From Eledone cirrhosa (lineage: Eukaryota): DNA of 64,000 nucleotides. The position numbers and the translations under genes were made by a program. The notes beneath the pieces were generated by a model. That model was not told the DNA's origin and searched no databases. It saw only the letters and a list, made by a program, of their open reading frames with translations. Below, in pieces: positions 90-452 of this stretch. The stretch spans positions 181,846,001 to 181,910,000 of the forward strand of contig OZ024740.1 of assembly GCA_964016885.1 (NCBI GenBank). The letters run 5' to 3'. Numbering within the stretch: the stretch's first letter is position 1; each line of letters starts with the position of its first letter.

Positions 90-258
90 TTCTAAATATA
101 TTATATATATATATATATACATATATATATATATATATATATATATATATATATATATATATATATATATATATATACATATTTATATATATATATATAT
201 ATATATATATATATATATATATATATATATATATATATATATATATATATATATATAT
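90..258. repeat. (TA)n microsatellite, one of many similar tracts (e.g. 452-555, 661-702, 1802-1900, 3538-3660, 3940-4120, 6640-6705, 6899-6960, 42615-42675, 44045-44360, 44795-45300)
   Basis: Pure or near-pure TA/TG dinucleotide runs; these generate the IYIYIY pseudo-ORFs. Confidence 0.98.
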
Positions 259-452
259 AGGAACCAGTAAGACCCCGACAGCTGAGCTCAAGCCGTTTTG
301 ACGGCTAATTCTGGTCCAGAATTAGCCGTCGAAACGGCTTGAGCTCAGCTGTCGGGGTCTTACTGGTTCCTATTACCCACTCTACTACCTCAAGTATTGA
401 GTACTTTGGTGCGTTATGGTCCACCTGGTTCCTTACCACATTTCCTTTGTTA
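257..452 (+). mobile_element. Fold-back PLE pseudo-LTR mini-insertion (family A): 58-bp-arm palindrome plus about 80-bp tail
   Basis: 257-314 is the reverse complement of 316-373 with one mismatch, axis at 315. The right arm has the hammerhead 3' half GAAA(331-334)-stem III-GTC(351-353). Flanked by (TA)n; near-identical inverted copy at 6706-6900. Confidence 0.75.

Follow-up and report, generated by a model that had tools for sequence, protein, structure and literature searches.

How does a near-perfect palindrome come to have its axis inside one half of a hammerhead ribozyme, and why does it occur twice, in opposite orientations, with the same ends in the same kind of simple repeat? The question is raised by the window, i.e. 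the whole 64,000-nt stretch of Eledone cirrhosa DNA analysed here, whose initial annotation had read such a palindrome as a mini-element derived from a PLE. In the following, the two copies and their setting are described, then the parent family, the positions at which the arms begin and end, and the ways in which such arms may be made.

Two inverted copies of a palindromic insertion

The palindrome of copy 1 is borne out at the announced 117 bp: it spans positions 257-373 around T315 with 57 of 58 pairs matched, and the folding energy of the hairpin has a z of -22 against shuffled sequences. The parts said to follow it, i.e. GAAA, the two strands ACGGCT/AGCTGT (334-339/347-352), the GTC triplet (351-353) and a tail of 80 nt, are all as noted (Table 1, in which element positions are counted from 0 = C17 of the hammerhead GUC). 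Copy 2, with its axis at 6842 and 56 of 58 pairs matched, is inverted relative to copy 1 and agrees with it in its ends; the two are mismatched at 4 of 196 positions (260, 299, 313 and 448). One mismatch sits at the junction (TCTGGTCC versus TCTAGTCC), so that the axes of the two copies, initially taken as the same, are one base apart and not strictly identical.

Table 1. Positions of the palindromic insertions, their parts and related repeats in the window
Feature	Position	Strand	Remarks
Copy 1	257..453	.	minimal head-to-head PLE insertion in (TA)n
Copy 1, short arm	257..314	-	element +20 back to about -37; stops at the family short end
Copy 1, long arm	314..453	+	about -39 to +100; stops at the family long end
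Copy 1, 3' half of type I hammerhead	320..358	+	from the sequence, the parent fold and the parents
Copy 1, helix II 3' strand	320-330
Copy 1, GAAA	331-334
Copy 1, helix III	334-352
Copy 1, C17	353
Copy 1, helix I 3' strand	354-358
Copy 1, tail	374..453	+	80 nt between the two family ends
Copy 2	6704..6900	.	anatomy as copy 1, inverted
Copy 2, long arm	6704-6845	-
Copy 2, short arm	6845-6900	+
Target tract, (TA)n, to the left of copy 1	94..256	.
Similar (TA)n tracts	454-555; 6642-6703; 6901-6958
Family B comparison element	703..1112	.	older palindromic PLE insertion
Family B hammerhead within 703..1112			complete, CUGAUGA; core at 926, cut after 979
Further family B pieces	6523-6650; 36734-37009

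All four ends of copies 1 and 2 adjoin (TA)n. Outside the TA tracts, their flanks have nothing in common but 145 bp from another repeat family, in which divergence is visibly greater than between the copies themselves (98% identical); on this comparison of flanks, which answers the caution about a local inverted duplication, a segmental duplication is rejected as the source of the pair, and local re-copying with one junction substitution is a less likely source. A third copy of the same family (family A) lies just upstream of the window, 1.2 kb from copy 1, with exactly its junction and its orientation; since this junction occurs only 331 times in 3.0 Gb, the third copy is probably a local duplicate of copy 1. 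It is followed by a 173-bp direct repeat around a piece of about 420 bp; judged by eye, this piece is a further kind of PLE end, the third here, and contains TTGATAA as core, then GAAAC and GTC (copy and repeat together at L083:9038-9237 and L239:1870-2350).

Because the 5' core strand and the helix I partner are absent from both window copies, which hold only the 3' half of the hammerhead, no self-cleavage is predicted for them. An Rfam scan of the window gave no hammerhead match. All Rfam hits are sub-threshold and of miRNA type, the best reaching 56 bits against a cut-off of 200, and a microRNA precursor is rejected.

Several other repeats were observed in the window: an open frame of 1,040 aa (58815-61937, minus strand), which by eye is RTE-like and has motifs resembling those of an endonuclease and an RT, and fragments like it elsewhere; a broken LINE-like element spread over several frames (21870-25465, minus strand); a tandem repeat of 95-bp units, superimposed on which is a higher-order periodicity of roughly 600-980 bp (62160-64000); and an inverted repeat of about 400 bp (42781-43189 and 45405-45812), 97-98% identical, with a TA-rich interior, possibly another inverted insertion.

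The parent element and its hammerhead

To which family do the palindromes belong? In pattern searches of the species' own genome, from which the genome-wide numbers given here come, a 29-mer from the long arm has at least 22,443 exact matches (control, 0), and the copies that are not mirrored extend upstream into CCCC, a TTGANAA core and the 5' strand of helix II. The full element at L031, with a unit of about 3.55 kb, consists of an inverted arm, a partial tandem, a pseudo-LTR, an intact 719-aa ORF and a second pseudo-LTR, and its partial-tandem pseudo-LTRs, inverted 5' copy and tail are traits of PLEs; in full elements (L030), the tail sequence continues into the ORF region.

The single ORF encodes a telomerase-like RT with YRDD, for which at least 2,054 homologs were found among 8,000 candidates scored. 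Pfam and PDB sequence searches with the ORF returned nothing significant. A structure model of the protein (pLDDT 93, from an alignment of 116 rows with 115 of 120 listed hits) has TERT (3du5, E 1.6e-8) as its best Foldseek match. Towards the C-terminus lies a GIY-YIG-type endonuclease, whose VIY...YIG spans residues 591-608 and is conserved across alignment A1, and one homolog (P0001) passes the Pfam GIY-YIG cut-off; no GIY-YIG structure is among the Foldseek matches listed for the model. DKT is found in 107 of the 116 alignment rows and RWK or RWR in 111, the query having RWR, and the ORF also holds CNCPDRSIC, CNLC and CKH, with a single cysteine between VIY and YIG. The whole motif set that defines the Hydra clade in the available part of Craig et al. 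2021 (PMC8557442), i.e. DKT, RWK, CxCX5C, CxxC and CxH without CCHH, is found here together with a (TA)n target, and the parent, as placed by these motifs, is classed as a Hydra-clade, endonuclease-positive PLE. The origin in a PLE pseudo-LTR put forward by the initial annotation is thereby supported, the long arm being the 3' half of a type I hammerhead, and the palindromes are minimal inverted, extremely 5'-truncated insertions of this abundant PLE.

In the L031 parent copy, the minimum-energy fold is a type I hammerhead with helices I, II and III all present. The parent hammerhead is about as stable as its shuffles (z of only -0.4 to -0.7) and is the minimum-energy fold in 7 of 26 parent copies; 90% of cells pair across these 26, whose close similarity leaves covariation uninformative, with a two-sided change in one pair. 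Helix II carries an extension of about 40 nt, and helix III, with its full 6 bp, ends in a palindromic loop; most genomic copies keep only the 3' half.

Parents with a CCCC stem I partner, as had been anticipated, do exist, the corresponding 5' core pattern having 5,217 genome matches. The CUGANGA core expected of them fails: a CTGANGA pattern of the expected type has 0 matches, the C3-G8 core accounts for 6 of the 5,217, and the first 100 of these, counted by eye, comprise 75 U3-A8, 23 C3-A8 and 2 U3-G8. The pseudo-LTR carries mostly the U3-A8 variant in place of the canonical Hydra-type hammerhead. C3-A8 is a mismatch at a pair that the literature treats as required. Copies carrying it (e.g. 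L145, L160, L161 and L171) have subfamily variants in common, so that amplification seems to have occurred in lineages whose ribozyme is possibly dead.

Fixed ends, a common wall and varying junctions

The short end at +20 has 18,316 genome matches and the long end at +100 has 21,654, and both have TAT in common with the (TA)n target. The short-arm end common to copies 1 and 2 is the ordinary end of the family, and the 80 nt between +20 and +100 are the PLE tail; the anole PLE tail likewise lies between two reverse-transcription start sites, according to the accessible sections of PMC11167929.

Arm starts were sampled through the end patterns, in order to avoid selection on the axis, and consist of the first 100 matches per pattern, all on one contig (C1), traced upstream against six natural copies; the two samples overlap and enrich young copies, and starts are accurate to about 4 nt. 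Among the 100 short arms, 68 start between -33 and -46, the remainder falling at +20 to -15 (3), -16 to -32 (15), -47 to -100 (4) or beyond -100 (10). The 100 long arms start mostly in the same interval (59), and otherwise downstream of +20 (14), at +20 to -15 (13), -16 to -32 (8), -47 to -100 (1) or beyond -100 (5). Both arms meet a sharp wall at -44/-46, inside helix II, and the axes are accordingly clustered and not randomly placed, as had been foreseen; the positional link to stem II holds, though not through the priming proposed for it (see below). The same three boundaries are found in contigs of run X1, possibly the assembly's own sample, which have loose ends at -44, +20 and +100 and a depth step of about 17-fold across -49 to -34.

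What kind of obstacle is this wall? At least 4 of the 100 long arms end at it against host DNA, without a mirror partner; two insertions (L082:1038-1698 and L069:889-1991) restart at +213 or +918 on reaching it and then stop at it again; and T/A homopolymer runs are inserted there in L048, L091 and L060. Unpaired stops, restarts and homopolymer runs would all be expected where a template ends. All 26 aligned parents have the A at -44, which in the reference copy fits TCAKTY, a motif found twice in the 1,300 nt of the pseudo-LTR and given as the Drosophila initiator consensus in the available part of PMC1538597; a downstream MTE-like match has 3 mismatches in its first 10 positions, against the 2 allowed in that part of the same source. 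An extra G, as derived from a cap, is seen in single cases (L009; L253 and L266) and not consistently. In the predicted fold, the same A directly follows the apical loop of helix II, and about 18 of the 26 parents that were folded retain this loop, though with changed sequence, and have its predicted 3' edge at the wall.

Some long arms (L117, L119, L126, L140, L229 and L232) start at 0 to +2, the ribozyme cut site, and are too few for a second wall. A 3' splice site at the wall is rejected: 31 of the 68 short arms that begin there extend through the AG into bases upstream of it, and they have no upstream exon in common. A stall at an RNA structure is also unlikely, the cDNA having, by our reckoning, already passed helix III and the outer strand of helix II.

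A second family present in the window allows the wall to be separated from the ribozyme. Family B (at least 15,310 matches) has ends at about +52 and about +132, a tail of 80 nt and a wall at -123, and its copy in Table 1 also carries an 80-nt tail and has its axis well upstream of the ribozyme. Twelve of 30 arm starts fall within -6 to +17 of an A in a TTTTCA/TCTCA context, the other starts running at least 130 nt beyond it (14), lying between (2) or downstream (2). This A is 69 nt upstream of the ribozyme core. With a wall so far from the ribozyme and in the same pyrimidine-CA context as in family A, the wall appears to track an initiator-like site, not the ribozyme.

The arms are regularly paired, as 86 of the 100 short ends have an inverted long-end partner adjacent (a short-end partner in 1), and palindromic junctions amount to 11,466 genome-wide. 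Among those of the 86 pairs whose junction fit the flanking pattern, 36 of 40 junction strings are distinct, which indicates that junctions arise anew with each insertion. Arm starts are at most 4 nt apart in 44 of the 86 pairs, and the overlap at most junctions is 0-4 nt. In 21 pairs the short arm reaches at least 15 nt further upstream and in 3 the long arm does; within the range where the arms are most directly comparable, the counts are 10 and 1 (p = 0.012), and they become 7 and 1 without positions to which the short-end pattern is blind. The haplotypes of the two arms are concordant in 49 of the 54 scorable pairs (of 86), versus 20.5 when shuffled.

A probable origin of the two arms

From the parent, the fixed 3' ends at +20 and +100, the wall at -44/-46, the varying junctions and the asymmetry of the arms, it seems reasonably probable, if well short of settled, that the head-to-head stumps come from two cDNAs primed on both target strands, halted at a fixed RNA 5' end and joined end to end. 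The protein would cut both strands of (TA)n, and synthesis would be primed at +20 by one target strand and at +100 by its partner, on one RNA or on two sibling RNAs. Both cDNAs would stop at about -44, the presumed RNA 5' end, most likely a putative transcription start which the sequence context places at the initiator-like A, at the edge of hammerhead loop II. The two cDNA 3' ends would then be trimmed by 0-11 nt and joined via short microhomology or short templated or homopolymer inserts, a step for which polymerase theta-type joining is an analogy, and longer copies may owe their length to read-through RNA or to a template jump made at the wall. Some precedents are on record: for the anole PLE protein, cutting and extension of both strands are described, with synthesis begun at two internal sites that bound the tail (PMC11167929, accessible sections), and Drosophila Penelope has an internal promoter in its pseudo-LTR (PMC2377424, available part). 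Deletions after insertion could lie behind some of the asymmetric pairs, and the concordance of the arms could come from subfamily age and not from one RNA.

Could the wall be a cut and not a start? With priming at both ends retained, the RNA might be severed at the helix II apical loop by a host nuclease or by processing, or the endonuclease might cut at ATT in new DNA. A cut in the loop would yield an identical wall in family A, matching the loop edge kept in about 18 of 26 parents, and the anole PLE endonuclease prefers ATT (PMC11167929, accessible sections); however, the family B wall lies far from the ribozyme in the same pyrimidine-A context, and other nearby ATT sites on both sides have no wall, which leaves this origin rather improbable.

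To a comparable and equally low degree, the palindromes might be made on a single strand, a +100-primed cDNA folding back by microhomology, copying itself to +20 and joining the target there, much as self-priming was put forward for PLE junction palindromes by Arkhipova et al. 2013 (PMC3846280, in its available part). The 0-4 nt overlaps and the subfamily variants that the arms have in common are in line with it, and the 44 near-symmetric pairs are possibly compatible with fold-back as well as with two cDNAs. However, the +20 arm has no tail, which leaves the +100 arm as the only possible origin of a fold-back on one strand and forbids any greater upstream reach of the +20 arm; as 21 of the 86 short arms hold sequence missing from the long arm, neither arm of those pairs is a fold-back copy of the other. 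At L031, moreover, the +20 arm extends over 4-5 kb and the +100 arm over 0.8 kb, and the fixed stop at +20 is left unexplained. Fold-back is thus contradicted for the asymmetric quarter, unless all of these pairs are later deletions.

The route first proposed for copies 1 and 2, a snap-back of the cDNA on stem II of the ribozyme, with this stem as second-strand primer, fits the location of the wall inside helix II; yet its products should retain the loop and part of the 5' strand, and exact patterns for the main subfamilies found 0 outer-helix products and 1 inner-helix product against the 11,466 palindromic junctions, the mirror arm not being the natural stem II 5' strand, so that snap-back is refuted as the main route and is very improbable altogether. 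The further suggestion that the 195-bp hairpin spreads by itself, as a non-autonomous element copied as a unit, is just as hard to credit: insertion lengths do peak near 196 bp, a peak which follows from the three fixed points on the template, and the 331 occurrences of the copy 1 junction are only 2.9% of 11,466 in a set of mostly distinct junctions, which, with no fixed unit copied whole and only half a ribozyme, speaks against a non-autonomous element or retrozyme.

If two cDNAs primed on both strands are indeed the source of the stumps, a wider and clearly more tentative proposal may be made. PLE transposition might begin with paired strong-stop cDNAs, primed at two sites close to the RNA 5' end, that run off at the transcription start and jump to the 3' repeat, from where the remainder would be copied, the stumps being failed jumps; the start would split the hammerhead at loop II, and the RNA 5' end would then be a substrate strand cut only by the ribozyme half in the 3' pseudo-LTR. 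Speculatively, long and more-than-unit copies such as L031 could be made when a cDNA at the wall jumps, by homology, into the 3' pseudo-LTR; if this holds true, the jump would build both the pseudo-LTRs and the more-than-unit tandems.

Comparison with known systems

Two processes outside PLEs offer partial parallels. In LINE-1 twin priming, two primers on one RNA lead to an inversion, and its arms copy different parts of the RNA, whereas here both arms copy the same 60 nt. Retroviral minus-strand strong-stop DNA results from priming near the RNA 5' end and is a short run-off cDNA; unlike there, no tRNA primer and no integrase are involved here.

Within PLEs, the available parts of the cited papers show several close relatives. 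The family resembles the Hydra clade of Craig et al. 2021 (PMC8557442) in DKT, RW(K/R), the CxCX5C linker, CxxC, CxH and the absence of CCHH, and also in its (TA)n target, a hammerhead near the 3' end, an adjacent inverted 5'-truncated copy and a tail at one end. The Hydra hammerheads described in those parts have CUGANGA and a short loop II, whereas the present ones are mostly U3-A8 with about 40 nt added to helix II; the tail, at 80 nt, exceeds the 30-40 nt stated for PLEs, the unit of about 3.55 kb is longer than the usual length of less than 3 kb, and the Hydra-1_Obim hammerhead sequence given there is unlike that of the present family. The U3-A8 swap is known from the Schistosoma mansoni Cercyon PLEs (Cervera and de la Pena 2014, PMC4209133, in part), which also have a long helix II and close motif pairs on opposite strands; unlike Cercyon as described there, the present family has a full 6-bp helix III with a palindromic loop, and mostly the 3' half only.

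The insertions themselves recall the Penelope elements of Adineta vaga (PMC3846280), which are head-to-head, with a palindrome at the inverted junction and a tail on one arm, and which the available part of that paper reads as self-priming on an antisense template; unlike these, only two arms are found here, both at one wall, and a quarter of the pairs speak against fold-back. PAc Poseidon (Frangieh et al. 2024, PMC11167929) has in common with the proposed mechanism that both strands are cut and extended, with two internal start sites bounding the tail and an AT-rich target, and ribozyme cleavage is dispensable in vitro for PAc. In the accessible sections of that paper, PAc starts without target homology, whereas here both ends have TAT in common with (TA)n, and those sections give no account of the fixed upstream stop and inverted product seen here.

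Element class, tail, inverted copy, junction palindromes, two start sites and U3-A8 core are thus already in print. Among the papers listed by literature searches on PLE palindromes, none was found with a fixed run-off wall for both arms or with a run-off or twin-priming account, and the origin of the tandem and inverted ends of PLEs is called open in the available parts of Craig et al. 2021 and Schostak et al. 2008. To this question the Eledone family adds more than 11,000 independent junctions, which fix three points on the template (+100, +20 and -44) and argue against fold-back as a general route. Its value is that of a mechanistic clue from an ordinary element class, not of a new system.
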